64,000 nucleotides of DNA. It comes from a virus (taxonomy: Duplodnaviria > Caudoviricetes). Below are positions 4,010-61,673 of this stretch, one piece after another. Numbering within the stretch: position 1 is the stretch's first letter; each line of letters begins with the position of its first letter. The notes beneath the pieces were generated by a model. It saw nothing but the letters and a program-made list of their open reading frames with translations, had not been told where the DNA came from and made no database searches. The position numbers and the translations under genes are program-made. The stretch lies in the IMG/VR virus record IMGVR_UViG_3300042922_001473; one strand, 5' to 3'.

Positions 4010-4771
4010 TTAACTTATTAGCTTTTGATTATAACAATTTTCTAAATCAGTATATGGGATATTGAATTCTATTCTTAAGGAAAACCCATTATAGTCATTC
4101 TTTCTTCCTGAAAATTTATAAATTACTGCATTAGGAAAATCGGACAACAAAAGTTCTTGAAATCTTTTTTTATTATTATCAGTATCTAATAGTTCAGATT
4201 TAAATTGAGCATTATGAATATCCCAACCATCATCTGTCTTTTGTTTTGTTCCATTATTATTTTTAAATACTTTAAAAATTTCTTTATCAGCTAAATGTGC
4301 TTCCTTTTCCATGCTCATATCAGAAGATAAATCTGCAATTATTCCATATGCTGAATAAGATACGGAAGCATAATGCCATCCTTCACTTTCATACCACGCT
4401 CTTAAAATATTTTCATATCTATTTATTGCCCCAGTAACTGCTTCTGGAGAGACTCCTTTTCCAAGCAAATCAATTAATCTTCGTATTTCTATGTTCTTTT
4501 CACGTATTTCAACATGTCTTTTTTCCTTTTCATTTAAAAGAATAGAATCATATCCTACCATTTTTGACAAATCTGAATGAAAGCCCTCATTTAATCCAAG
4601 ATTTGTCCATACATTAGTTTTATTTACAATGTCCCCTTCAACTAAATCTCTAAAAAAGAACATATTTGACAACATTTCATTTATTTTCTTTATAACCTTT
4701 TTCTTATCTTCAAAAGATAATGAAAGAAGCGTATCATCTCTAAATATTTCTAATTTACTCATACTATTCAC
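4010..4771 (-). CDS. hypothetical protein
   Basis: 253-aa ORF; AGGAG RBS; last gene of the hen1 operon. Confidence 0.75.
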   Translation of the reverse strand: MNSMSKLEIFRDDTLLSLSFEDKKKVIKKINEMLSNMFFFRDLVEGDIVNKTNVWTNLGLNEGFHSDLSKMVGYDSILLNEKEKRHVEIREKNIEIRRLIDLLGKGVSPEAVTGAINRYENILRAWYESEGWHYASVSYSAYGIIADLSSDMSMEKEAHLADKEIFKVFKNNNGTKQKTDDGWDIHNAQFKSELLDTDNNKKRFQELLLSDFPNAVIYKFSGRKNDYNGFSLRIEFNIPYTDLENCYNQKLIS

Positions 4772-4920
4772 TCCTAATTCTATAATCTATGGTCAACAAC
4801 TTCATTTGTCATACATAAAATAGCAAGTCATGCCACGTTTAAAACCTTTCGCCATTTGTTAAAGCGTTTTAAAGCCTCTAAGCAATGAAGTAATTCGCTA
4901 TAATGTAATGACTTTTTTGT
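4760..4920. repeat. degenerate direct repeat of pnkp 3' end + RBS + next start (other copy 5614-5780)
   Basis: ctataatctatggtcaacaacttcatttgtcatacataaaatag is identical in both copies; the rest diverges by indels and substitutions. Confidence 0.9.
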
Positions 4921-4929
4921 TTAAAATCA

Positions 4930-5625
4930 TTAATTTGTTCCTTCATTTTCAACACTTGTTTGACAACTAATTAATGTTGCCTGAATAGAGTCTATAACAC
5001 TACAAATCGAATATTTAAGAAGAAAGTATAAATTACTATATTCAGGATATTTGTCTTTTGCTTTTCTGATAAGTGGTAAAATATATTCGTAAGTTTCATC
5101 AATATATGATTGTAATTTCTCATTACTAAATACACCTGCCATTGAAGATACGTTATGACATCTATCAATACATTTTACTATAATTACTCTCTTATCATCT
5201 AACATTGAATTATAGTATCGTTTTTTTGCTTCTTCTTTTGTTTCTCCATCTAAAACTTCAAATGTAAGTTTTTTAACCCCAAGTTTAATATCATCATTAA
5301 CAGGAAAGTCACTTATAGGCGTATTGCAATCCTCTGCCACATCATGAAGCATAATCATTGCAATTATTGAGTCATCTTTTATGCCCATTGATACAGCATA
5401 AGATGCCATAGTTAATGGATGTATAAAATATGGTGTTCCATCTTTTCTTTTTTGGTCTTTATGCTTATCTCTTGCATATGAAAGAGCTTTTAAAGTTTCT
5501 GTCATACCTGCACCCATTGCAAAACCTTTATTATAAGTATAAAGTTTATAAACATCAAATAATTTATTTCCCATATGTTCCAATTCTACTCTTTTTTTAA
5601 TTGCATTTGTTGTCATATTATTCAC
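4930..5625 (-). CDS. SpoT/Mesh1-like HD-domain hydrolase (small alarmone hydrolase-like)
   Basis: RKDGTPYFIHP, LHDVAED and KCIDRCHN motifs. Confidence 0.85.
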   Translation of the reverse strand: MNNMTTNAIKKRVELEHMGNKLFDVYKLYTYNKGFAMGAGMTETLKALSYARDKHKDQKRKDGTPYFIHPLTMASYAVSMGIKDDSIIAMIMLHDVAEDCNTPISDFPVNDDIKLGVKKLTFEVLDGETKEEAKKRYYNSMLDDKRVIIVKCIDRCHNVSSMAGVFSNEKLQSYIDETYEYILPLIRKAKDKYPEYSNLYFLLKYSICSVIDSIQATLISCQTSVENEGTN

Positions 5626-5633
5626 TCCTCACT

Positions 5634-6872
5634 CTATAATCTATGGTCAACAACTTCATTTGTCATACATAAAATAGTAAGTATATACTCATGCCACGTT
5701 TGAAAATCTTCACCATTTGAAAATCGTTTTAAAGCCTCTACGCCAAGAAGCAATTCCCTATAATGTAATGACCTTTTTCTGCTTAAGCTTCTATTTTTTA
5801 ATTTTGCTATTACTGTAGGGTTGTCATAGTTAATTCCATATATAATCCTTAAATAATCCTTACCCCTTACTTTCATCATAGGAAGGATTAATTCACCCTG
5901 GTCATTATGTTCGAGAAAATATTCTGTCTTTAATATAAATCCCTCATACCCTTTAGAAGTTAATTCATCCCAAAATTTTATTGAATTACTTATGCTTTCT
6001 TCTTTGGTAAGGTCTATAAGCACATATGGTGTTTTAATAAATAAGTTATCTTCATTTTCAGCAAACATATTAAAGTGATTTAAGTGCCATTCATGCTCTT
6101 TGTCAAAAAATGTTTTTCCTTCATGTGCTAATAAATGAAAAGGTGCAATTTTTATATTTTCAATATTTGTATCCCAGCAATAGTTCTCTAATTGTTGTTT
6201 ATATTTATTTATGTTTGTAAGATTATTTTCTACTTCTTTAAGCATTTCTTCTTTAATTATAGGAGTATCTTTTAAGTTTTCATATAATTTAGTGTTTAAA
6301 GCTAATGCACTATCAAGTACAGGTAGATATTGATTAAAAAGTAATCCTTCACCTTTAGCATTCCATGGAAGAATTTCAGCGTCTATTATTACAAACCCAG
6401 TATCAAACCTATTAAAATAATCAATACTATTTAAAATAGCTTTAATCCTTAATGATATAGTTTCATTTTCTTTTTCATTGAAGAATTTCTTGCCTGTTCT
6501 TGAATAGATAATTACTTCTTCTTGTTGGTTAGTAAACTCTATTGCTTTTTCTTTATCTTTAAAAACAATAATAGTGCTTCTGCTTCCCATATGTTTTAAT
6601 TCAGCAATTAATCTTTTAGCTCCAAGAGATTTATATTCTTCAATTGCCTCTATAGGATGTTCAAGAAAATCTATATTTTTAGAAGTTCTGCATGGGCTAA
6701 TTGTTGGTGGAATATATGGTAATACATTCGTAGGCATTAACCTAAAACTTATTTCATCAAGTGCTGATTGCACATTTTTAGGGTGTATATTTATTTCTCT
6801 ATTATCAACTGCTATGTTAAACCCATTTATATATTTAGCTATATCAACAGCTTTAAATCTATTATTTAACAT
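5634..6872 (-). CDS. Pnkp-type RNA ligase (adenylyltransferase) domain only
   Basis: PPTISP, motif I ELKHMGSR, DAEILPW, APFHLLA, EGFILK, KVRGKDYLRIIYG and C-terminal VDHRL; no kinase or phosphatase domains. Confidence 0.9.
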   Translation of the reverse strand: MLNNRFKAVDIAKYINGFNIAVDNREINIHPKNVQSALDEISFRLMPTNVLPYIPPTISPCRTSKNIDFLEHPIEAIEEYKSLGAKRLIAELKHMGSRSTIIVFKDKEKAIEFTNQQEEVIIYSRTGKKFFNEKENETISLRIKAILNSIDYFNRFDTGFVIIDAEILPWNAKGEGLLFNQYLPVLDSALALNTKLYENLKDTPIIKEEMLKEVENNLTNINKYKQQLENYCWDTNIENIKIAPFHLLAHEGKTFFDKEHEWHLNHFNMFAENEDNLFIKTPYVLIDLTKEESISNSIKFWDELTSKGYEGFILKTEYFLEHNDQGELILPMMKVRGKDYLRIIYGINYDNPTVIAKLKNRSLSRKRSLHYRELLLGVEALKRFSNGEDFQTWHEYILTILCMTNEVVDHRL

Positions 6873-6898
6873 TATTTATCCTCCAAATACCTGATATT

Positions 6899-8443
6899 TT
6901 ATATATTTAACTTTGTAAATACTGCCATCATAGTCGGTTGTATATCATCAATAACCTTTCCGAAAGAAGAAACCTTATAGTCATATCCATAAGTTTTACT
7001 AATATTTTCACAGAAACTCATGAATTCATTTTTAGTAAATTCAAATCTATGGTCATAATGTCTTAACCTATTAGAACTATTAAAGAATTTGTTAAATTCT
7101 ATATTTGGTGTTGAAATTATTAAGTTCTTTGGTTCAAGATACATTACATTGTCAATAATTCCTGGTATTCTTTCAAGTTCATTATGCTCAATTACTTCAC
7201 AAAGAACTATTGTATCAAATCCCTTTAATCTTGAATCTCTATAATACAGAGAGCTTTGCAATAGTGTTATGTTGTTAAATTTATTACCCCTAAATCTATT
7301 CTTAGCTTTATAGATTATATCAGCATTAGAATCAACACCTGTAATTTCTAAATTTTCATATACTAATTTATCAATCAAATTTCCTTCGCCACAACCAAAA
7401 TCCAGAACTTTTTTGCATTTTGTTTCTAAAATTGCTTCTTTTACCTTAATTAATCTTAAAGTATTTAACTTTAATCCATTTTCTCCATATCCTTTATCTA
7501 CAACTTCTTCTATTTCTATCTCGTTATTAATTTGATTTATTTGTTTATTTTTCTCCTCTATTTCATTTAATAGCTCTGTTGCATAAGTAGAATATGACAA
7601 ATATCTTTGAGTAATTACTTTTCTCATTGAATGAGTATCAAGCCAGCCTTCAGTATATCTTTTAAATTTTTCTAAATCCTGTTTTTCTGGTTTAAAATGC
7701 CTGAAATTATCTATTGCGGTAATAGTTACAATGAGTTCTCTTAATATATCTCTCACCTTTCCTGTTTTCTCTAATTTGATAAAACAAATTTCTTTTCTTC
7801 TTGAAGTAAAAGAAACAGGTTCATTAAATTCTTCTATCGCAACTTTATACCCAAGTTCTTCATACATCTTTATTATATTTTCATTAGTTAGTTTTGGTTT
7901 AAATGGTCCTACTTCTAATTGAATATCATACTCATTTTCATAGATGTCGCCTTCTTTATTCAATGAAGTGTTTAATACATTCATTATTTCTTTTTGAAAT
8001 ACCGAAGTAGCAAGATACTCTTTTTCGTTTACATATCCATTGAAATCTTTAGCAAATGCTAATGTATCTGGTAATGAGTACAAAACTGCCTCAACCTCAG
8101 TTTCAGTATATTTTTTATAAAAGAAAAATGTATCAATTATCTCTCCTACTTTTTTTCTTATTAATTCACCATTTGACGTGATATATTTTACCTGCGTGTT
8201 CTCATTTATTACTTCAAGTTTTTCATTAATAACTCTATCTTTTTTTAATAATTTAATTAAATCCTTTGATAATGTCTTTATATTTAATGAGACCTCTCCA
8301 TTTTTTAATAAGTCTTTTATTTTATAATCTACATCTACAGCTACAGCTCTTTCACTATTCACAAATACTTTGTTAGGATTTTTACCATATACGTAACTTA
8401 ATAAATTCGCATTATTACCCTTTGCGTTTATCTTTAAAAACAT
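6899..8443 (-). CDS. hen1: Hen1 RNA 3'-terminal 2'-O-methyltransferase
   Basis: N-terminal GKNP ligase-activating region; VLDFGCGEG, EVIEH, STPNIEFN, RHYDHRFEFT; adjacent to Pnkp ligase. Confidence 0.9.
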   Translation of the reverse strand: MFLKINAKGNNANLLSYVYGKNPNKVFVNSERAVAVDVDYKIKDLLKNGEVSLNIKTLSKDLIKLLKKDRVINEKLEVINENTQVKYITSNGELIRKKVGEIIDTFFFYKKYTETEVEAVLYSLPDTLAFAKDFNGYVNEKEYLATSVFQKEIMNVLNTSLNKEGDIYENEYDIQLEVGPFKPKLTNENIIKMYEELGYKVAIEEFNEPVSFTSRRKEICFIKLEKTGKVRDILRELIVTITAIDNFRHFKPEKQDLEKFKRYTEGWLDTHSMRKVITQRYLSYSTYATELLNEIEEKNKQINQINNEIEIEEVVDKGYGENGLKLNTLRLIKVKEAILETKCKKVLDFGCGEGNLIDKLVYENLEITGVDSNADIIYKAKNRFRGNKFNNITLLQSSLYYRDSRLKGFDTIVLCEVIEHNELERIPGIIDNVMYLEPKNLIISTPNIEFNKFFNSSNRLRHYDHRFEFTKNEFMSFCENISKTYGYDYKVSSFGKVIDDIQPTMMAVFTKLNI

Positions 8444-8480: not shown

Positions 8481-8494
8481 TTGACTTTAGTCTG
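8481..8494. promoter_or_regulatory. palindromic operator variant TTGACTTTAGTCTG upstream of hen1
   Basis: Matches TTGAC-N4-GTCAA copies at 13402, 14609, 34071, 34610. Confidence 0.55.
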
Positions 8495-8552
8495 TTTCGA
8501 TATTATAATAATTTTATAGACTATTAAAATTTATGTAACTTCTATTAATTCC

Positions 8553-8581
8553 ATTATATCATAATTATTTCTTTTTGTCAA
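8553..8581 (-). promoter_or_regulatory. consensus sigmaA promoter for hen1 operon
   Basis: Minus strand TTGACA-N17-TATAAT with TG extension. Confidence 0.8.
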
Positions 8582-17483: not shown

Positions 17484-18479
17484 CTATGCGATTTTTTTAC
17501 TCTTAATTAAGTAATCATTATTTATCACTTTCATTGATAAGTTAGAACATAATATTTCGCTATAACAAGGTATCATTGGAATTATAACTATGCCCTCTCT
17601 TTGATGATTTGAGCTTTCGTAAACACCTTTAGCAAGTTCTAACAATTCTTCTAATGTGAATTCAAATGTAACATTCAGCTTCATAGGCACATGCTTTAAC
17701 CCATACTTTTTACAGAAATCAATTAATTCTTCAGGGCTTAGATATGACTGAGTATCATTATTAAATATTCTAAACACGAATAATTCATTTTCTTTTAATC
17801 CTAACTTATTTTTCATTATCCCAGGACCTGCTATTTCTCCTTGTATAGAATAATTCCCTGCCTTTTTCAATATTTCAATAATATTATATTTCTTTTCCAT
17901 TTTCCAGTAAACACTATTTTCGTCTTTCAATAAGCTATGTGTATGACTGCATACATGGTAATCATCATTATTCTTTATGTAAGAAGCTGAATACCCGTCT
18001 ATTTTTGTTGTAATTGCTACTTTTTTACCCATAAATTCATCTATAAGTTTTGGGAATGATTGTACTCTTTCTTCACCTGTTTTACTTACTATAGTTGGGT
18101 GATAACCTCTTGATACGCCTATCATTTCTTCTGGAAATTCATCCTCATATTTTTCAACACCAAGCAACTCAGTTACATCTTTTCCTTCAAAAATCTCTGT
18201 ACTTGTTGGAAGAATATCGGTTGTCCAGCATAACCCTTGTGATAACTGCCCACGAAGTCTAAGAGTTTTTAATCTGTAATTATTGATTGCCATATATTCA
18301 AATTCAGGTATTTTAGGTAATATACTATCTATTTCAAAGTATATACATAAATCCCCTTCTTTAAATTGTCCTTTCTTTACTACACATTTCCAACCTAATA
18401 TTGTAGCTATATCTAATGTATCAGCATTAAAATGTGGTACAAGTTTTGTAATTTTCTGAATAGATGCTAACTTTCGCAT
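17484..18479 (-). CDS. ATP-dependent RNA ligase, DRB0094/Rnl5 family
   Basis: MRKLASIQKI OB-like N-terminus, YFEIDS, LRGQLSQGL, KIDG, QGEIAGPGI, REGIV, KVINNDYL. Confidence 0.9.
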   Translation of the reverse strand: MRKLASIQKITKLVPHFNADTLDIATILGWKCVVKKGQFKEGDLCIYFEIDSILPKIPEFEYMAINNYRLKTLRLRGQLSQGLCWTTDILPTSTEIFEGKDVTELLGVEKYEDEFPEEMIGVSRGYHPTIVSKTGEERVQSFPKLIDEFMGKKVAITTKIDGYSASYIKNNDDYHVCSHTHSLLKDENSVYWKMEKKYNIIEILKKAGNYSIQGEIAGPGIMKNKLGLKENELFVFRIFNNDTQSYLSPEELIDFCKKYGLKHVPMKLNVTFEFTLEELLELAKGVYESSNHQREGIVIIPMIPCYSEILCSNLSMKVINNDYLIKSKKIA

Positions 18480-26307: not shown

Positions 26308-27513
26308 TTAAAGTTCATAATTTGAAATTGTATTTCTTGAAGCTCCATAACTTAAATATCCTTCATTAAAACCTACACTATTAAATGTATCAGTAATAAA
26401 TTGTTTAATAGACGAAATTTTTTCTTTTGAATTAGTTATGTATTTTGCTTCATTATTTATCTGGTCTAAGCAAGTTATCGCAAGTTTTGCATTAAAGTTT
26501 AGACTTTTTGCATATTTTAAGTCATTTCGTATGGTTTTTCCAAGTAAATCTATATCAAGTATTCCAAATCTTAATGTTCCTTGATATGGATTTGGCACAT
26601 TTGTCAAATCTATAATCTTTTCATATGGTTTATTTCTTGTTTCAGTCGGGAATGTCCCTACACCATGTCTTGTAAGGTACGCTCTTGTAACATAAATAAT
26701 TTCTATATCTTCTTTTTCAAATCCTATTCTATTTATGAGTTCTACTACATTTTTAATGCCTGTGTTTGAACGGGTGACATATGGGAAATACTCATGTCCC
26801 TGGTCGAGCATTAATCCCTGTGCTCCCTCAAATATAATATTATCAAATTCTTGTAGGATTCCAATGTCTCTCACTTTAATTTTATCCAACATATTGTTAA
26901 TGTCATATATATAATTCTCTATAATTCCTTCGTTATTAAGTAAAGAACAATATCTTTCAGGTACAGAAGATACTCCTAAGTTATAAAATCTATTCATATT
27001 ATATTGTTCTTTGATTATAGCTAACTTTTCTCTTAGTAATTGTTCATTAAATAAATCATTAACAGTTATTTTGAATTTTTCATCTTCTAAACTTCTTGTA
27101 ATCGTCTCATTAAAACCAAGACCACAACTTCCATGTTTTAAATTTCCTCTAAACGCTTCAACAGCTTGATTAATAATCATATCAAAAGGGGTAGTTACAA
27201 TACAATTTTTATCAACATAAACAATAGGGTTTACTCCTAAACTATTTAGGCTATTAATTTCTTTTTCAAAAGTCATTGGATTAACAACGAAGTATTCGCT
27301 AAGATAAGTAGGTTTGCCAGTAAAAGAACCTGCACCAAAATGCCCAAACACATGTCTCTTACCATCAGGAGTTTCTATTGTGTGACCTGCTTGTGCTCCC
27401 CCATTAAAGCGAACAACTATAGCATTTTCTATTCCTGCTGATAAATAATCAGTCATTAACCCCTTTCCTTCATCTCCAAAATTGCTTCCTATGACTACTT
27501 TTATATTTTTCAT
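26308..27513 (-). CDS. divergent adenylosuccinate-synthetase-like (PurA fold) enzyme
   Basis: GDEGKG, RFNGGAQAGHT, FEGAQGLMLD, PYVTRSNT, YLTRHG; Asp-binding TTGR loop and TKLD motif replaced. Confidence 0.85.
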   Translation of the reverse strand: MKNIKVVIGSNFGDEGKGLMTDYLSAGIENAIVVRFNGGAQAGHTIETPDGKRHVFGHFGAGSFTGKPTYLSEYFVVNPMTFEKEINSLNSLGVNPIVYVDKNCIVTTPFDMIINQAVEAFRGNLKHGSCGLGFNETITRSLEDEKFKITVNDLFNEQLLREKLAIIKEQYNMNRFYNLGVSSVPERYCSLLNNEGIIENYIYDINNMLDKIKVRDIGILQEFDNIIFEGAQGLMLDQGHEYFPYVTRSNTGIKNVVELINRIGFEKEDIEIIYVTRAYLTRHGVGTFPTETRNKPYEKIIDLTNVPNPYQGTLRFGILDIDLLGKTIRNDLKYAKSLNFNAKLAITCLDQINNEAKYITNSKEKISSIKQFITDTFNSVGFNEGYLSYGASRNTISNYEL

Positions 27514-27553: not shown

Positions 27554-28477
27554 TTAAAACCTAACTATACCTCCTGCAGTATCTATCTTACTTAAAGAAC
27601 TAACCGCTTTTTCCACAACCAATGAAGTTGAACCATCCCAGCTCTTAATAACTTTGTCTGTGTCAGCTCCATTTTCTATTTGTAGTGTAGAAACAATGAC
27701 CTCTGCTAACTTAGTATGGTCAGATAGTCTTATAGCTCTTTGACCTAATAATTCTGTCCAAGCATTTACCACTTGCTCTCCTCTACTTCTAAAATAATTA
27801 CCATTTTCGACCATAATATGATAAACTTCATATTGCCTTGATACCATTGTTAATAATTCTTGTACTTCAATCTTATCAAATTGTGGTTTAATTCCAAATA
27901 CTCTTTCTATATCACAACCTCTTAAATAAGGTGTCGGAAGTTCATCTCCAATAGTAAATAAGTATCCTTTCTTTCCACGCTTTTCAAAACTATCAATTCT
28001 TGTATACATTGAAGCAAAGTACCAAGCTAAAGCATATGATTCATAATTATTTCCTCCACCACCCTTTTCAAGGTAAATTTTAGATAATTGTTCGGCAATA
28101 CGAATATCTGCTTCAAATTGTGTTGCTTGAAGTGGTGCTCTATCTCCTTCCTCTACATCTCCAATACCTAAAAACATGATATGTGGGTCTGTAATCGGTT
28201 TTCTGTTATATACTTCTGTTGCAAGTGTTTTTAATCCATCCCTTGCCATTACATCAAGTACTGAACCCATTGAACCCGTAACATCAAGTGCTACAATAAG
28301 TGGACTTGATAATGGGTTATCTACTGAATCACATGATTCTCTCATTTTAATATCTTTCGGGTTTAAATCTTTATCAATATTTTTTGCAGTATAAATTTCT
28401 TCAACAGTAGCCTTTCCTATTATATTTTTAGTTGCATACCTTACCCAGTCGCTTTCTTTCCATCTTCCTTCACCCAT
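27554..28477 (-). CDS. vWA-domain protein
   Basis: MIDAS-like DVTGSMG, GGGGNNYESY, IGDE. Confidence 0.85.
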   Translation of the reverse strand: MGEGRWKESDWVRYATKNIIGKATVEEIYTAKNIDKDLNPKDIKMRESCDSVDNPLSSPLIVALDVTGSMGSVLDVMARDGLKTLATEVYNRKPITDPHIMFLGIGDVEEGDRAPLQATQFEADIRIAEQLSKIYLEKGGGGNNYESYALAWYFASMYTRIDSFEKRGKKGYLFTIGDELPTPYLRGCDIERVFGIKPQFDKIEVQELLTMVSRQYEVYHIMVENGNYFRSRGEQVVNAWTELLGQRAIRLSDHTKLAEVIVSTLQIENGADTDKVIKSWDGSTSLVVEKAVSSLSKIDTAGGIVRF

Positions 28478-28483
28478 AATTTA

Positions 28484-29527
28484 TTACCTCCTATTATTTT
28501 TATTATATAATTCTTCTTTATTAACAATCATTTCAATAAATTTTCTTTCTCCAAAGCTTTCTTCTAAGACTTTTCCCCATTTTGAATATTCTTCTAATGC
28601 ACTTTTTGATGATGAAGTACCTCTTAACCAATTCGTTAATGGAAGGGGGATATCATTCATTTGTACTAATTTTGTTCCATTCTTATCCCCTAAAAGCTCT
28701 CTTCCAATCATTCTAACAGATTCTAAATCTGTCAATAAGCTACCATTCTTCTTGTTTTTTATATGTGGAGGCATAATAGTGTAGATTTTTTCTGGCACTC
28801 CTATCATTTTCTCCCCTTGATTTACTGAATACCACCACCCACCTAAAAGAACTCCACTATGATATTTTGGTGATATGAAATATGTTTCTAATGATATTGC
28901 ATTATGAGATATTCCTGAATAATCAAAATAGCATAAAAGATTGTATAAACTACTTAGTATCCATGCCACATGTCGAGGTGAAACTCTTTCATCATAATAA
29001 TTAAAAATATCTTTTAAAAGGAATACATCTGGTGTTTTATCTATAATTAATCCAATTTTATAATCAATTGTTTCAAAAGTCGCTTTTATTTTAGGAAGAT
29101 ACCTCGATATTTCTTTTTCCATATTCTCATTTGCATACTTAAAATCATTGATTGTTCTTTTAGCATTTTCAACTAAATCACTATTTTTCTTGTCTACTAT
29201 AAAAGCTACTGAAGCATCACCTACATACATTGTTCCTAATTCAAAAGAATGAGATTTGTGATACTTTATTTCATTTACATTACCATTTACTCCTGATAGC
29301 TTTATAACTCCTGGTTTTTTATATGTGCCAGTCCTAATCATCTCAACACATTCGTTATAAAGTTTATTAACATTCGCCATTACTTCATTTGATTCTTTTG
29401 AATTGCTATTTAAATCAGGATGCCACTGTTTAGCTAATTGTGAATACTTCAGTTTAATTTCATTTATATTGTCAGAAAATAACTCACCAGCTTCTTTAAT
29501 ATTTAATATTTCACTTGCAGATAACAT
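28484..29527 (-). CDS. J-domain fused to kinase-like (probably pseudokinase) domain
   Basis: LAKQWHPD; HVAWILSSL...GISHNAISLETY...LLGGWWY in place of HRD and DFG. Confidence 0.75.
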   Translation of the reverse strand: MLSASEILNIKEAGELFSDNINEIKLKYSQLAKQWHPDLNSNSKESNEVMANVNKLYNECVEMIRTGTYKKPGVIKLSGVNGNVNEIKYHKSHSFELGTMYVGDASVAFIVDKKNSDLVENAKRTINDFKYANENMEKEISRYLPKIKATFETIDYKIGLIIDKTPDVFLLKDIFNYYDERVSPRHVAWILSSLYNLLCYFDYSGISHNAISLETYFISPKYHSGVLLGGWWYSVNQGEKMIGVPEKIYTIMPPHIKNKKNGSLLTDLESVRMIGRELLGDKNGTKLVQMNDIPLPLTNWLRGTSSSKSALEEYSKWGKVLEESFGERKFIEMIVNKEELYNKNNRR

Positions 29528-35044: not shown

Positions 35045-36712
35045 TTAATTTTCAATTATTAAGTTTCCATCAGAGTCATAAATACTTATATTAAAATCTC
35101 TTGGAACTACAGTAACATTTATATCAATTGAGCTTGCTCCATCTAATGTTGTTAGTGTTACTACAGAAGTTCCTTCTTTTAATCCAACTATATTGTATTT
35201 AGAATTTCTTGCTTGTAATGCTTTTACTACTTTTTTATCTGATACAGTTGTTTTTATTTTCTTAGAAAGAGTTTCTTCTGGTATTACTACTGCGGAAAAT
35301 TCATATCTATCCCCTACTTTAATAGTTATGTTTGTTTCGGGAACAATAATTCCGTCAACAGTACTTATTGTACTTACTAAGCAAGAAGCTGTATATCCAC
35401 CATCTTCTGTTGTTACAGTTATTACTGCATCCCCAGCACTTACTGCATACACTTTACCTTTAATTACTTTTACTACTTTACTGTTGCTTGATGACCATTT
35501 AACATTTTTATTAACTGCATTTTCTGGGTAGACTGTAGCTGTTAGCATTTCATTTTCTCCAACTTTAAGTTCAATCATATCTTTATTTAAAGATACACCA
35601 GTAACAGTTGAATCAACATTAACTACAAAATCTATTTTTGCTTCATCAGAGTCCTGAGTTACAGTAGCTGTAATAGTTGCAGTTCCGTTTGAAATTGCTT
35701 TTATTTTTCCGTTTCTAATAGTAGCTATTGATTTATCAGAAGTTGTCCATTTGATTTTATAATCACTTAAAGATTTTGAATTACTTAAATCATCGGTAAC
35801 AATAATTTCAAGTTCTTCACCAACATTTAAGTCTGCAGAGCTTATTTTGTTATCATTTTTATCAAGAATAAATAGTTTTTCTACATCTGATACAACTACA
35901 ATAGTTGCTTGACCAGTAAAACCACCGTCTCTTGACTTGAAATGAACAACTGTTTCACCCTCATTTAATCCTGTAACAGTACCTTCTTTATCAATTCTAA
36001 TTAAGCTTTTTTCTGCAATTTCATAAAGTATTGTTTGGTCAAAAGCATTTTCTGGATAAACTTTTACATCAAGTGTAAATTTTTTTCCAACTTCTATAAT
36101 GACATTATCTGTATTAACCTTTAACCCAGTGACCATTGGTGTAACAGTTACCTCACATATAGCTTTGTATCCACCATCAACAGTTGTTACTGTAATTATT
36201 GCTTTTCCTTCTTTCACTCCTGTTACTACACCGTTAACAACCTTAGCTACAGCAGGATTATCAGTAGACCATGTTACATCTTTTTTAAATGCATCTGTCG
36301 GCAGTATATTTGCTGTTAATTTAACTTTTTCTCCGACATTTATGTCAAGATTTGTTTTATCAAGTTCTACTCCAGTAACTGTTGAATGTACATTTACTGT
36401 AAATTTTACCAAAGTTTCATTATCTTTTATTTTTGCAGTAATTATTGTTTGTCCTTCTGAAACACCTATAAGTTTTTTAGATGCATCTATTCTTGCAATT
36501 TTATTATTATCTGAAGTAAATTGAGTAACAAGAGTATCTATCTCTTCATTAATGTCAGAAGCAACAATAACTGTTTCAAGTGAAATTTTGTCTCCAACAA
36601 GTATATCTAAGCTACCCATATTTTCTGCATTAACCGCTAATGGATTAAATACAAATAGACAGCAAAGAATAATCAATGTCATTGACATTTTTAACAAATT
36701 ATTATTTTTCAT
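35045..36712 (-). CDS. secreted Ig-like (Big_2) repeat protein
   Basis: Signal peptide; about six V.WS(S/T).N..VA.V..G.V.....G.A.IT repeats. Confidence 0.9.
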   Translation of the reverse strand: MKNNNLLKMSMTLIILCCLFVFNPLAVNAENMGSLDILVGDKISLETVIVASDINEEIDTLVTQFTSDNNKIARIDASKKLIGVSEGQTIITAKIKDNETLVKFTVNVHSTVTGVELDKTNLDINVGEKVKLTANILPTDAFKKDVTWSTDNPAVAKVVNGVVTGVKEGKAIITVTTVDGGYKAICEVTVTPMVTGLKVNTDNVIIEVGKKFTLDVKVYPENAFDQTILYEIAEKSLIRIDKEGTVTGLNEGETVVHFKSRDGGFTGQATIVVVSDVEKLFILDKNDNKISSADLNVGEELEIIVTDDLSNSKSLSDYKIKWTTSDKSIATIRNGKIKAISNGTATITATVTQDSDEAKIDFVVNVDSTVTGVSLNKDMIELKVGENEMLTATVYPENAVNKNVKWSSSNSKVVKVIKGKVYAVSAGDAVITVTTEDGGYTASCLVSTISTVDGIIVPETNITIKVGDRYEFSAVVIPEETLSKKIKTTVSDKKVVKALQARNSKYNIVGLKEGTSVVTLTTLDGASSIDINVTVVPRDFNISIYDSDGNLIIEN

Positions 36713-37433: not shown

Positions 37434-38699
37434 GTGAATATACATATGCGATTGTCATTTAAATTCAAACCACAACTAAATAGTTTGCAAGCTAACATTA
37501 TTGAAGAGTTAAGTTATCATACTACAAAATTATATAACATAGTTAACTATGATAATTTAACCTATGGTGTAAAATCATATTACAAAATGAATGAAGTATA
37601 TAATTCTAATTGGCATAAGGAATTTCTTCATAGTCATAACTATCAGCATAGTCTAAAGGTTTTAGAGCAAAACTGGAAAAGTTATTTTAAATCAATTACT
37701 GATTTTAAGAAAAGCCTTTCAAAATACAATGGTATGCCAAAACCACCAAAGTATAAAAATTTAAATGATAGGAAAAATGAAATAATATTTACTTCTGCAG
37801 GAATTAGAATTAAAAACAATACTTTAATGCTTTCACTCTCTAAAGCTATGCAATTAAAATATGGTGTAAATAGTCTTAATTTTGAAGTTTCTAATAAACT
37901 TCAAAGCCTATTTAATTGGAATAGCCTTCAACAAGCAAAGATTTGCTGGAACAGTTCATTAAAAGAGTGGAGCATAATTTTAATATATCTAAAAGAAGAA
38001 GTGGTTTTATCAAATGACTTTAATAACATTATGGCAATTGACCTTGGTTTAAGCAACCTTGCAACAATGACATTCTTAAACAATGAAGAAAGCTATATAA
38101 TCAATGGAAAACCACTTAAGTCAGTAAATAGCCATATTGATAAGAAGATTTCACATTTGCAAAGAATATCAATGCACATGGTTGGCAGTAAAAATCATAA
38201 GGATTCTAAAGAAATAACACGTCTTAGAACTTATCGTGAAAATTATATTAATAACTATTTGCATAAAGCAAGTAAAATTATCATTGAATTAGCACTAAAA
38301 CATAAGTGTAGCACTATAGTTATTGGCGATATCCATGGTATTAAACAAAACTTAAACTACAATAAGACATTTGTTCAAATACCAATACTTAAACTAAAAG
38401 AAATGATTAGCTATAAAGCAAAATTACAAGGGATAGAAGTAAAACTTCAAAATGAAGCATATACTTCTGGTTGTAGTGCAATTGATTTAGAATTAATAGC
38501 TAAATCACATTACAATAAAAAAAGAAGAATATGCAGAGGCATATTCCAAAGTAACACAAACATTAAAATTAACTCAGATGTGAATGGTAGTCTTAACATA
38601 TTAAGGCTATATACAAAAGACACATGTATTCCCAAACTAATAACAACAGCAAGGGATAAGGGCTACGTGAATAGCCCAATAAAGCAAAGGGTGGCTTAG
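37434..38699 (+). CDS. tnpB: RNA-guided endonuclease TnpB
   Basis: AIDLG, VIGD, EAYTS, NSDVNGSLNI. Confidence 0.9.
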   Translation: MNIHMRLSFKFKPQLNSLQANIIEELSYHTTKLYNIVNYDNLTYGVKSYYKMNEVYNSNWHKEFLHSHNYQHSLKVLEQNWKSYFKSITDFKKSLSKYNGMPKPPKYKNLNDRKNEIIFTSAGIRIKNNTLMLSLSKAMQLKYGVNSLNFEVSNKLQSLFNWNSLQQAKICWNSSLKEWSIILIYLKEEVVLSNDFNNIMAIDLGLSNLATMTFLNNEESYIINGKPLKSVNSHIDKKISHLQRISMHMVGSKNHKDSKEITRLRTYRENYINNYLHKASKIIIELALKHKCSTIVIGDIHGIKQNLNYNKTFVQIPILKLKEMISYKAKLQGIEVKLQNEAYTSGCSAIDLELIAKSHYNKKRRICRGIFQSNTNIKINSDVNGSLNILRLYTKDTCIPKLITTARDKGYVNSPIKQRVA

Positions 38700-60155: not shown

Positions 60156-61673
60156 TTGAAATATATGCCTAAATCAAATACTAAATCTTTTATACTGGAA
60201 TTAAAATTAAATGCTGAAATATTTCAAATTCAAATTTTAAACAAAAGATTTGAGATTGCTCGCAAAATGTATAATTCAACTCTTTCGTATGCTTTAAAGC
60301 AACTAAAATTGATGCAAGAAAATAAAGAATATAAAGACGCTTTAAACAACTACATTGAAGCTAAGAAAAATAATGATAAATACAATATTAAGCTTCATTT
60401 GGAAACTTTAAATAATATTAGACTTTCATTTTGTTTATCTGATTATCATTTGCAGGAATATATAATTAAATCAAAAAGAAATTATGAAAGCCATATAGAT
60501 ATAAATACCTCCCAGAAAATTGCTTCTACAGTTTGGAAAGCAACTTCAGATGTTCTGTTTAAGAAAGGCAACAAAGTTCACTTTAAAAAATTTGGAGAGT
60601 TATTATCCATAGAAGGCAAATCAAATAAACAAGGTATTCGATTTAAAGATAATTTTCTAATGTGGAATGGTCTTAAAATTTCAGTTAAAATAAGAAACAA
60701 TGATATATTTGCTAAAGAAAGTCTTGAAAACCACAATATTAAATATTGCAGAATAATTAAAAAAATAATAGGTAACAAAGAAACCTTTTATTTGCAACTA
60801 ATATTGGAAGGAGTGCCTCCTGAAAAGAAAGTTAATTCTACTGGTGAATTAAGACATAAACTTTCAGAAAACAAAAGAGTTGGTATTGATTTAGGTACTT
60901 CCACAATTGCAATAGTTTCACAAGATATTGCGGAGTTAAAAGAACTTGCTCCAAATATAATGAAATATGAAAAAGAAATAAATATGTTATTAAGATATCT
61001 TGGCAGAAGCAAAAGGGCTACAAATCCATTTAACTATAATAAAGATGGTACTATAAAAAGAGATATTAAGCTAAAGTGGATAAGAAGTAAAAAATATATA
61101 AAAGCTTTGTTTAAATTAAAAAACCTATATAGACTGAAATCGCAATATATAAACAAAACTCATAATAAATTATGTAATTTTATTTTAAAATTGGGTGATG
61201 AAATTTATACAGAAGAAATGAATTTTAGAGCTTTAGCAAAACGTTCCAAGAAAACTGAAATTTCAGTTAAAACAGGTAATTTAAAAAAGAAAAAGCGTTT
61301 TGGCAAAAGTATATTAAATAAAGCCCCAAGCAAAGTATTAACAATATTAAATAGAAAACTAAACTATCAAGATAAAGAACTTATAAAAGTAAATACCAGA
61401 AAATATAGAGCAAGTCAATATAATCATGTAACAGATACCTATAAAAAGAAAAAATTAAGCCAACGATGGAATTATATAGATAATTGTAAAATTCAAAGAG
61501 ATTTGTATTCTGCGTTTTTACTAATGTGTGCAAAAGATAAAACAAAACCAGATAAGGCACTTTGCAATAAAGAATTTCATGAATTTAAAAAGAATCACAA
61601 TGAGTGTATAGAAAAAATTAAGTACAGTGATAATAAATTAATAAACAGTTTTGGAATAAAGAAAATAGCATAA
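60156..61673 (+). CDS. tnpB: large TnpB-family RNA-guided nuclease
   Basis: RuvC triad VGIDLG, IYTEEM, IQRDLYSAF. Confidence 0.85.
   Translation: MKYMPKSNTKSFILELKLNAEIFQIQILNKRFEIARKMYNSTLSYALKQLKLMQENKEYKDALNNYIEAKKNNDKYNIKLHLETLNNIRLSFCLSDYHLQEYIIKSKRNYESHIDINTSQKIASTVWKATSDVLFKKGNKVHFKKFGELLSIEGKSNKQGIRFKDNFLMWNGLKISVKIRNNDIFAKESLENHNIKYCRIIKKIIGNKETFYLQLILEGVPPEKKVNSTGELRHKLSENKRVGIDLGTSTIAIVSQDIAELKELAPNIMKYEKEINMLLRYLGRSKRATNPFNYNKDGTIKRDIKLKWIRSKKYIKALFKLKNLYRLKSQYINKTHNKLCNFILKLGDEIYTEEMNFRALAKRSKKTEISVKTGNLKKKKRFGKSILNKAPSKVLTILNRKLNYQDKELIKVNTRKYRASQYNHVTDTYKKKKLSQRWNYIDNCKIQRDLYSAFLLMCAKDKTKPDKALCNKEFHEFKKNHNECIEKIKYSDNKLINSFGIKKIA

Follow-up and report, generated by a model that had tools for sequence, protein, structure and literature searches.

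The window analysed here, i.e., the whole stretch of 64,000 nucleotides (26% G+C) from the IMG/VR virus record IMGVR_UViG_3300042922_001473 (Duplodnaviria; Caudoviricetes), contains an operon of four co-oriented minus-strand open reading frames (ORFs) behind one promoter. In order of transcription, these encode the RNA 3′-terminal ribose 2′-O-methyltransferase Hen1 (514 aa, 6899-8443), a stand-alone Pnkp-type ATP-dependent RNA ligase domain (412 aa, 5634-6872), a SpoT/Rel/MESH1-type HD_4 hydrolase without a synthetase domain (228 aa, 4930-5616), and a 250-aa protein of unknown family (4010-4762). All four ORFs lie where an earlier reading of the DNA, made from the letters alone (hereafter the sequence-only reading), had put them, and two of the starts were refined. 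Namely, the HD gene begins at the ATG at 5616, not at the GTG at 5625, and thus 17 nt past the ligase gene, and the fourth ORF begins at the ATG at 4762. The ribosome-binding site (RBS) that had been claimed for the ligase gene is likewise present, as a GGAGG 26 nt past the hen1 stop. The promoter, on the minus strand at 8553-8581, is of the sigma-70 type, with TTGACA and a TG-extended TATAAT separated by 17 nt, and it agrees with the consensus at 12/12 positions. Between the promoter and the RBS of hen1 lies an operator-like half-palindrome, GACTAAAGTCAA (8481-8500), which agrees with the palindrome TTGACTWWAGTCAA.

The Hen1 protein, identified through Pfam, TIGR04074 and PDB matches, consists of a ligase-activating N-domain and a methyltransferase domain. 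Pfam recognizes Hen1_L (83.5 bits) as well as S-adenosylmethionine (SAM) methyltransferase domains, and TIGR04074 matches over model positions 71-462 with 256 bits, which is below the equivalog cut-off of 340. Among structures, the Hen1 methyltransferases 3jwg/3jwh are matched at 1.6e-35 and the Hen1 N-domain 4dqz at 1.2e-12. The SAM and metal motifs, namely GCGEG, EVIEH and HxDHRFE, are all kept. An alignment reveals an insertion of ~70 aa near the N-terminus, which is specific to the clade described below and absent from canonical Hen1. In two diverged relatives of the locus, L003 (2756-4828) and L004 (5843-8011), Hen1 is longer still, at 690 and 722 aa, owing to a C-terminal extension of ~230 aa. 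Between them the extensions share 29% identity, and they have neither a Pfam match nor a P-loop. Kinship of these extensions with the 250-aa protein of the window was considered and rejected, as there is no similarity.

The protein encoded after hen1 is a Pnkp ligase module and nothing else. Its Pfam match is PF16542, with 371 bits, and of the 851 positions in the Pnkp model TIGR04075 it covers only 457-851, with 368 bits, under the equivalog cut-off of 750. The 412-aa protein aligns end to end with the crystallized ligase-domain constructs of Pnkp, 4drf_A and 3ty5/8/9 (266-277 bits), and its ligase motifs are intact: KHMGSR (motif I), EILPWNAK, EGFILK and KVRGKDYLRIIYG, with motifs III, IV and V aligned to 4drf/3ty9. 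Pfam finds no Metallophos match in this protein, and a kinase-phosphatase profile built from the N-termini of full-length Pnkp finds nothing in the window. The Walker A pattern [GA]x4GK[ST], also allowing R or D variants, is present in 0 ORFs of at least 50 aa in the 64 kb; that is, there is no P-loop kinase in the window. The coverage of TIGR04075, the Pfam result and the motif search therefore bear out the description of this gene as a ligase-only Pnkp module lacking both the P-loop kinase and the metallophosphoesterase.

To place this ligase among its relatives, 5.8 billion proteins were searched, which yielded 18 further ligase-only clusters at 39-60% identity, 404-424 aa in length. The 19 members aligned have a nearly constant length, at 404-427 aa. 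A scan of IMG/VR with the single ligase gave no match, and alignment-based scans were needed there. Across the alignment of 19 members, K93, E166, E310, G311, K315, K334 and R336 are invariant. The tight hen1-ligase pair recurs in six other diverged loci (L002, L003, L004, L005/6, L012 and L013/14), in each of which the ligase-only gene follows straight after hen1, with a gap of 1-10 nt or an overlap, and the other neighbours are all different. In L002 a gene for the RNA 2′-phosphotransferase Tpt1 lies directly upstream of hen1, and Tpt1 is found again near Hen1/Pnkp in L040 and L047. No kinase or phosphatase candidate was found near the seven close-clade loci within the examined flanks, which reach up to 10 kb and less in some. 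A small P-loop ORF after the L004 ligase was set aside, being too short and fragment-like.

The ligase-only form is not the product of a recent event. In a quick maximum-likelihood tree, built from 40 ligase domains, the seven ligase-only rows make up one clade (SH-aLRT 98) with long internal branches, and this clade is nested in a group with three viral genes for full-length Pnkp (L015, L020 and L021). On the same tree, ligase-only forms arise at least three times. The divergence of the seven loci, their conserved motifs and their position among full-length viral Pnkp contradict a recent truncation, which the sequence-only reading had named as a possible refutation. For the cellular comparison we took the best 80 loci, from 80 species genomes, at 35-42% identity; all of them encode full-length Pnkp (80/80), and hen1 is directly upstream in 77/80. 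Thus, the gene order is the ancestral one, and the loss of domains is peculiar to mobile elements; to judge from these comparisons, the core of the operon is derived from a hen1-pnkp operon whose Pnkp lost its kinase and phosphatase domains.

To examine how such modules are built elsewhere in viral DNA, 36 IMG/VR loci were scanned with profiles of the ligase, of Hen1, of HD_4 and of the Pnkp kinase-phosphatase portion. Full-length Pnkp is encoded 16 times among these, in nearly every case alongside Hen1 as a gene of its own. There are also at least eight non-redundant fusions of Hen1 and ligase (734-1324 aa) that lack the kinase-phosphatase part: L016 (8621-11050), L018 (8420-11074), L023 (8513-11146), L026, L027, L028, L031 and L042. 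Pfam detects the ligase domain in 8/8 of them and Hen1 or methyltransferase domains in 7/8, that of L031 being recognized by our in-house Hen1 profile. In the L027 fusion Pfam places Hen1_L from residue 363, which leaves ~350 extra N-terminal residues unexplained. Two further database proteins, P0088 (523 aa) and P0024 (481 aa), have Hen1_L joined straight to the ligase domain and lack a methyltransferase domain, and could be either real fusions or gene-calling run-through.

Other loci divide the same activities differently. L037 and L043 have a ligase-only gene paired with Hen1; in L022, Hen1, the kinase-phosphatase and the ligase are three genes; and in L035 and L040 the kinase is split from a phosphatase-ligase. 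In L034 (9962-13456), a ligase-only gene comes first, and the next gene encodes a protein of 709 aa that joins Hen1 to a kinase of T4 type (AAA_33) and a HAD_PNKP phosphatase; on its domain make-up this locus looks like a compact Pnkp1-Rnl-Hen1 system. Kinase-like genes lie apart from, though near, the fusions in L028 and L030 (AAA_33/Zeta by Pfam) and in L023 and L031 (P-loop motif only), and some fusion loci have further RNA ligases nearby. Modules without a fused kinase-phosphatase are thus common in phage DNA and of several separate origins. We found no description of such Hen1-ligase modules in the searchable literature, whose scope did not take in the main survey (Burroughs and Aravind 2016). 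The proposal that end-healing is outsourced holds at least for some distant relatives, in which a separate kinase-like gene lies a few kb off; at the locus itself, no 5′ kinase was found in the window.

The third gene of the operon is a SpoT/Mesh1-type HD hydrolase, as had been proposed. Its product matches PF13328 (HD_4) with 46.2 bits against a cut-off of 27.2, the hydrolase part of TIGR00691, and phrog_15275 at 3e-36. Against PDB entries, Rel hydrolase domains are matched at 7e-17 with the catalytic motifs aligned, and MESH1 is also among the best matches. The motifs R/K-x-G-x-PY-x-x-HP, LHDVAED and DRCHN align with those of Bacillus subtilis Rel. HD_4 is the only domain found, with no Walker A motif and no kinase fusion of the kind seen in HD-Pnk. 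The family is large, with 272 clusters of similar length, and the protein belongs to a distinct subfamily of 205-230 aa that is mostly metagenomic and phage-borne and is separated by a large score gap from the long RSH proteins. As in the small alarmone hydrolases MESH1, ATfaRel and PaSpo, there is a single HD_4 domain with the hydrolase motifs kept and no synthetase; here, however, the protein is of a separate phage subfamily repeatedly found beside RNA repair genes, and no toxic synthetase partner was seen.

The HD gene is enclosed by a direct repeat. Copy A (5613-5799, minus strand) consists of the functional 3′ end of the ligase gene together with the RBS and ATG of the HD gene; copy B (4759-4939, minus strand) consists of a decayed ligase 3′ end, with a 7-nt deletion, together with the RBS and ATG of the next gene, and so lies between the HD stop and the fourth gene. 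The two copies, of ~185 nt each, align in three collinear blocks (direct-repeat families D1-D3) with 94%, 84% and 78% identity, and the 45-nt repeat core occurs exactly twice in the window, where 0 occurrences are expected. Copy B resembles the ligase end of the window itself far more than it does those of four relatives. That is, the HD gene is a secondary insertion, marked by the duplicated ligase 3′ end. The simplest reading of these repeats is that the ancestral order would have been hen1, ligase and 250-aa gene, and that the HD gene would have entered by a recombination that duplicated the junction.

Phage HD_4 genes nevertheless adjoin RNA repair genes directly in six other viral loci, five of them from an HD-centred survey and one (L019) from the ligase survey, their partners being RlaP, RNA ligase or Hen1/Pnkp. 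In L019, a 371-kb viral contig, the HD_4 gene overlaps the hen1 stop and is followed by a full-length pnkp, with RlaP 0.8 kb further. In L112 and in L128, RlaP is followed by HD_4 in overlapping ORFs, and in L062 HD_4 is followed by RlaP, with 0.4 kb between. In L054, HD_4 precedes a PF09414 RNA ligase by 77 nt, and in L055 it follows a ligase-like protein that has a PHA02142 OB-fold and no Pfam catalytic domain. At a seventh locus (L087), RlaP lies 1.2 kb and an RNA ligase 8 kb from HD_4. Counting RlaP and ligase matches within 10 kb of the HD gene, 5/13 are at most 0.5 kb away, where a uniform distribution expects 5% (binomial 3e-4), a test that ignores relatedness and a count that related phages among the HD loci may inflate. 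A cellular HD match, two genes after pnkp in locus L184, was discarded, its 31.7 bits being compatible with chance.

The element that carries the operon has the same gene company, i.e., Macro/NADAR, RlaP and a PHA02142/PF09414 ligase. The last of these is a second RNA ligase in the window itself (331 aa, 17484-18479, minus strand), which combines the PHA02142 OB-fold with PF09414 RNA_ligase (Pfam, 98.6 and 92.2 bits) and is of the same type as the HD_4 neighbours in L054 and L055. It lies 9 kb upstream of the hen1 operon on the same strand and is part of a loose RNA-repair neighbourhood. A Macro/NADAR fusion (305 aa), followed directly by the nucleotidyltransferase RlaP (PF10127, 360 aa), is encoded at 6562-8579 of L130 on the operon's strand, 10-12 kb downstream of the operon and about 5-8 kb before the window start. 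In the nearest viral relatives of the HD gene, too, Macro-domain genes lie a few kb away.

The adjacency of HD_4 to RlaP, ligases and Hen1/Pnkp suggests a role on RNA 3′ ends. Class II CCA-adding enzymes, in which a Pol-beta nucleotidyltransferase is fused to an HD domain with 2′,3′-cyclic phosphodiesterase and phosphatase activities, would offer a direct parallel to the pairing of RlaP and HD genes. RlaP has been found to add 1-2 nucleotides onto a damaged RNA 3′-OH (PMC12776372). MESH1 and ATfaRel strip the 3′ pyrophosphate from tRNA, an activity likened by the authors to the 3′-phosphatase of T4 Pnk (10.1101/2021.04.30.441581). In Runella slithyformis, a ligase is clustered with the healing enzyme HD-Pnk, Tpt1 and a methyltransferase-HIT protein (PMC6097658). 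The present system shares with that cluster an ATP-dependent ligase, an HD-domain phosphoesterase, a methyltransferase and, in the relative L002, Tpt1; it differs in having an HD protein of the SpoT-type HD_4 family without a kinase fusion, Hen1 as its methyltransferase, and a ligase from another family. Taken together, these published chemistries make a link between HD_4 and repair chemically plausible. A broader reading is that phage HD_4 proteins are not alarmone hydrolases at all, and instead heal RNA 3′ ends bearing 3′-pyrophosphate, 3′-phosphate or cyclic phosphate as part of a modular, shuffled toolkit against tRNA-targeting defences, in which HD_4 would pass the 3′-OH on, whether to RlaP, an ATP-dependent ligase or a Hen1-ligase machine without a kinase; we put this forward only tentatively, and regard it as doubtful on balance.

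The locus itself is a variant of the Pnkp/Hen1 system, and not a previously unseen kind of system. In common with the Pnkp/Hen1 systems of Clostridium thermocellum and Anabaena variabilis, it has the Hen1 N-domain with the Mn-dependent 2′-O-methyltransferase, the same ligase lineage, and hen1 directly upstream of the ligase gene, as in the cellular loci above. In contrast to them, it lacks the N-terminal polynucleotide kinase and the central metallophosphoesterase, its Hen1 has the ~70-aa insertion, and it resides on a phage-like element with accessory genes after the ligase. A separate ligase polypeptide partnering Hen1 is also found in the Pnkp1-Rnl-Hen1 system of Capnocytophaga gingivalis (PMC4411300). 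The ligase here is, however, only distantly Rnl-like: it scores 39.7 bits over 134 residues against the Rnl of that three-protein system (4xru_B), i.e., about 40 bits versus 266-277 bits against the Pnkp ligase constructs. In addition, the window encodes no T4-type Pnkp1 (kinase plus HAD phosphatase), and hen1 adjoins the ligase gene here, whereas the two genes are far apart in Capnocytophaga according to that source.

Our preferred reading is that this is a phage-type operon for the rescue of RNA, probably tRNA, with a seal-and-mark core of Hen1 and ligase, healing supplied in trans, and an HD_4 hydrolase recruited for 3′ ends; we regard the case for it as about evenly balanced. By analogy with the known system, Hen1 would methylate the 2′-OH of the 3′-terminal nucleotide at an RNA break, and its N-domain would activate the stand-alone ligase. 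The latter, by homology, would join the 3′-OH to the 5′-phosphate, and the repaired junction would then resist re-cleavage by transesterifying ribotoxins. Since transesterifying nucleases leave a cyclic phosphate and a 5′-OH, and since the kinase and phosphatase domains have been lost, healing would have to come from elsewhere. What the sequences show directly is the domain content, the intact catalytic motifs, how conserved and old the ligase-only form is, the insertion of the HD gene and the recurrent closeness of phage HD_4 to repair genes; we infer what each enzyme does and on what substrate, a part in anti-defence, and where the kinase comes from. The HD_4 hydrolase, a later recruit, most likely would free ends with 3′-pyrophosphate, 3′-phosphate or 2′,3′-cyclic phosphate to give the 3′-OH that Hen1, ATP-dependent ligases and RlaP require, and the 5′ kinase would be provided in trans, from elsewhere on the very large element or from the host.

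Several observations weigh against this reading. No 5′ kinase was found in the window, in the ~13 kb beyond the window start (where there is one loose GKD match), or in the 3-10 kb flanks of the close relatives, so that the genes seen there do not add up to a complete repair pathway. Besides being a secondary insertion, the HD gene is found in none of the six other clade loci. Its nearest relatives (77% identity) sit after TelA- and vWA-family genes on other phage-like contigs, and 0/78 viral HD_4 loci have Hen1 or a Pnkp-type ligase within 10 kb. The HD protein retains every residue for (p)ppGpp hydrolysis, and fusions in its family are only to signalling domains (PAS-GGDEF-EAL, in one relative) or to unknown domains, with no repair domain among them. 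The adjacency count, moreover, is subject to the relatedness noted above. Because the HD_4 of L019 accompanies a complete Pnkp, the HD protein is also an accessory rather than a substitute for the lost domains. The anti-defence repair module put forward by the sequence-only reading accordingly survives in part: the old ligase-only form and the outsourced healing of distant relatives speak for it, the idea that the HD protein cleans RNA 3′ ends draws indirect support from the six adjacent loci, and the HD gene has proved not to be a conserved part of the module.

Many of the same facts would follow if the HD gene were a chance passenger, i.e., a small alarmone hydrolase of the ordinary sort, acting to lower (p)ppGpp or (p)ppApp in the host, with all of the healing for Hen1 and ligase encoded elsewhere. 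It would then reprogram the stringent response or counter alarmone-making toxins, which is the usual reading of phage small alarmone hydrolases (PMC12846349). The intact RSH hydrolase motifs, the best matches to Rel/SpoT hydrolase domains and MESH1, the recent entry of the gene between duplicated sequences, its absence from the other clade loci, the lack of Hen1 or Pnkp-type ligase near the 78 viral HD_4 genes and the one PAS-GGDEF-EAL fusion all fit such a passenger. On the other hand, HD_4 adjoins RlaP, RNA ligase or Hen1/Pnkp in six diverse viral loci, several with start/stop overlaps, an adjacency not easily accounted for if the enzyme acted in nucleotide signalling alone. We consider the passenger explanation rather unlikely.

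Less probable again, and in our view distinctly unlikely, is that no healing is needed. Metal-dependent ribotoxins leave 3′-OH and 5′-phosphate ends, and Hen1 and ligase might repair breaks that are ready for sealing in this way, the work of metal-dependent nucleases like the PIN- or Toprim-type defence effectors, so that repeated loss of kinase and phosphatase in phages would be possible. Kinase-phosphatase-free modules did arise at least three times, single-chain Hen1-ligase fusions included, and neither a kinase nor a phosphatase is near the seven close-clade loci within the flanks examined. Metal-dependent ribotoxins are also noted as exceptions among ribotoxins (PMC4411300). Yet the known benefit of the Hen1 2′-O-methyl group lies in blocking transesterifying nucleases, which leave the cyclic phosphate and 5′-OH (PMC6097658). 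The methyltransferase motifs are strictly kept, and several distant fusion loci have separate kinase-like genes nearby. Finally, that a full-length pnkp is decaying here, with the ligase ORF as what is left of it in a defunct operon, as the two NCBIfam equivalog scores under their cut-offs (256 vs 340 and 368 vs 750 bits) and the decayed ligase fragment close by might suggest, is very improbable in view of the full-length open frames, the separate RBS, the intact motifs, and 19 members at 39-60% identity with invariant catalytic columns, near-constant length, monophyly and long internal branches.

The fourth gene (4010-4762, minus strand) has no Pfam, NCBIfam or PHROG match. In its predicted structure (AlphaFold pLDDT 94.9), a pair of long helical hairpins precedes a small alpha/beta domain. 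Shape comparisons (Foldseek against PDB, VIA-align wide, ESM Atlas) returned nothing beyond weak matches or helical hairpins of a generic kind, the best with a TM-score of 0.40; the nearest ESM Atlas shape is that of a long RelA/SpoT-type protein (TM 0.40 by query), which is too weak to use, though a curious coincidence next to a SpoT-like gene. There is also a weak profile match to 5a2v (E 0.002). The protein has 303 homologous cluster representatives. In two other contexts of such homologues no repair genes lie beside them (on viral contigs, one short locus), and no homologue occurs in about 200 other loci that were collected. The gene is probably the original one downstream of the ligase in this lineage, and from these comparisons it would be a lineage-specific passenger, a link to repair genes elsewhere not having been seen.

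As to the setting, the host element is phage-like, giant and AT-rich, with many small genes. The same ligase, identical in sequence, is recorded from two contigs, of which one belongs to an NCBI assembly (99 kb), and the longest contig listed is of 534,699 bp. The DNA of the window matches no phage GenBank record, and at the protein level the search gave distant matches only, at 24-25% identity. Recognizable genes include an Ig-domain structural protein like major tail proteins (35045-36712, minus strand; phrog_215, phrog_341), two phrog_506 transposases on the plus strand (37434-38699 and 60156-61673), and a DUF551 protein. A PurA/PurZ-like homologue of adenylosuccinate synthetase (26308-27513, minus strand; phrog_1211, 2e-67) lies at one end of a three-gene operon with the ORFs 27554-28477 and 28484-29527. 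No tRNA gene and no Rfam family at gathering score was found in the 64-kb window; 64 kb without a Walker A motif, a tRNA gene or an Rfam family is unusual for a phage-like element this long.

Pnkp/Hen1 is taught as a machine that heals, seals and marks, with the three activities of Pnkp travelling together. In this window, as in many viral contigs, sealing and marking have come apart from the rest, either as a gene pair or as a single fusion, and this raises the question of who heals the ends during infection, and whether the ends left by some defence nucleases need healing at all. The results of most interest thus reach past the window, namely the wide occurrence of seal-and-mark modules and the clustering of HD_4 with repair genes. 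The latter points to a testable new role for a large, uncharacterized family of phage proteins. If that role is true, alarmone-type chemistry would be tied to RNA end repair, with a bearing on counter-defence against anticodon nucleases and tRNA-pyrophosphorylating toxins.

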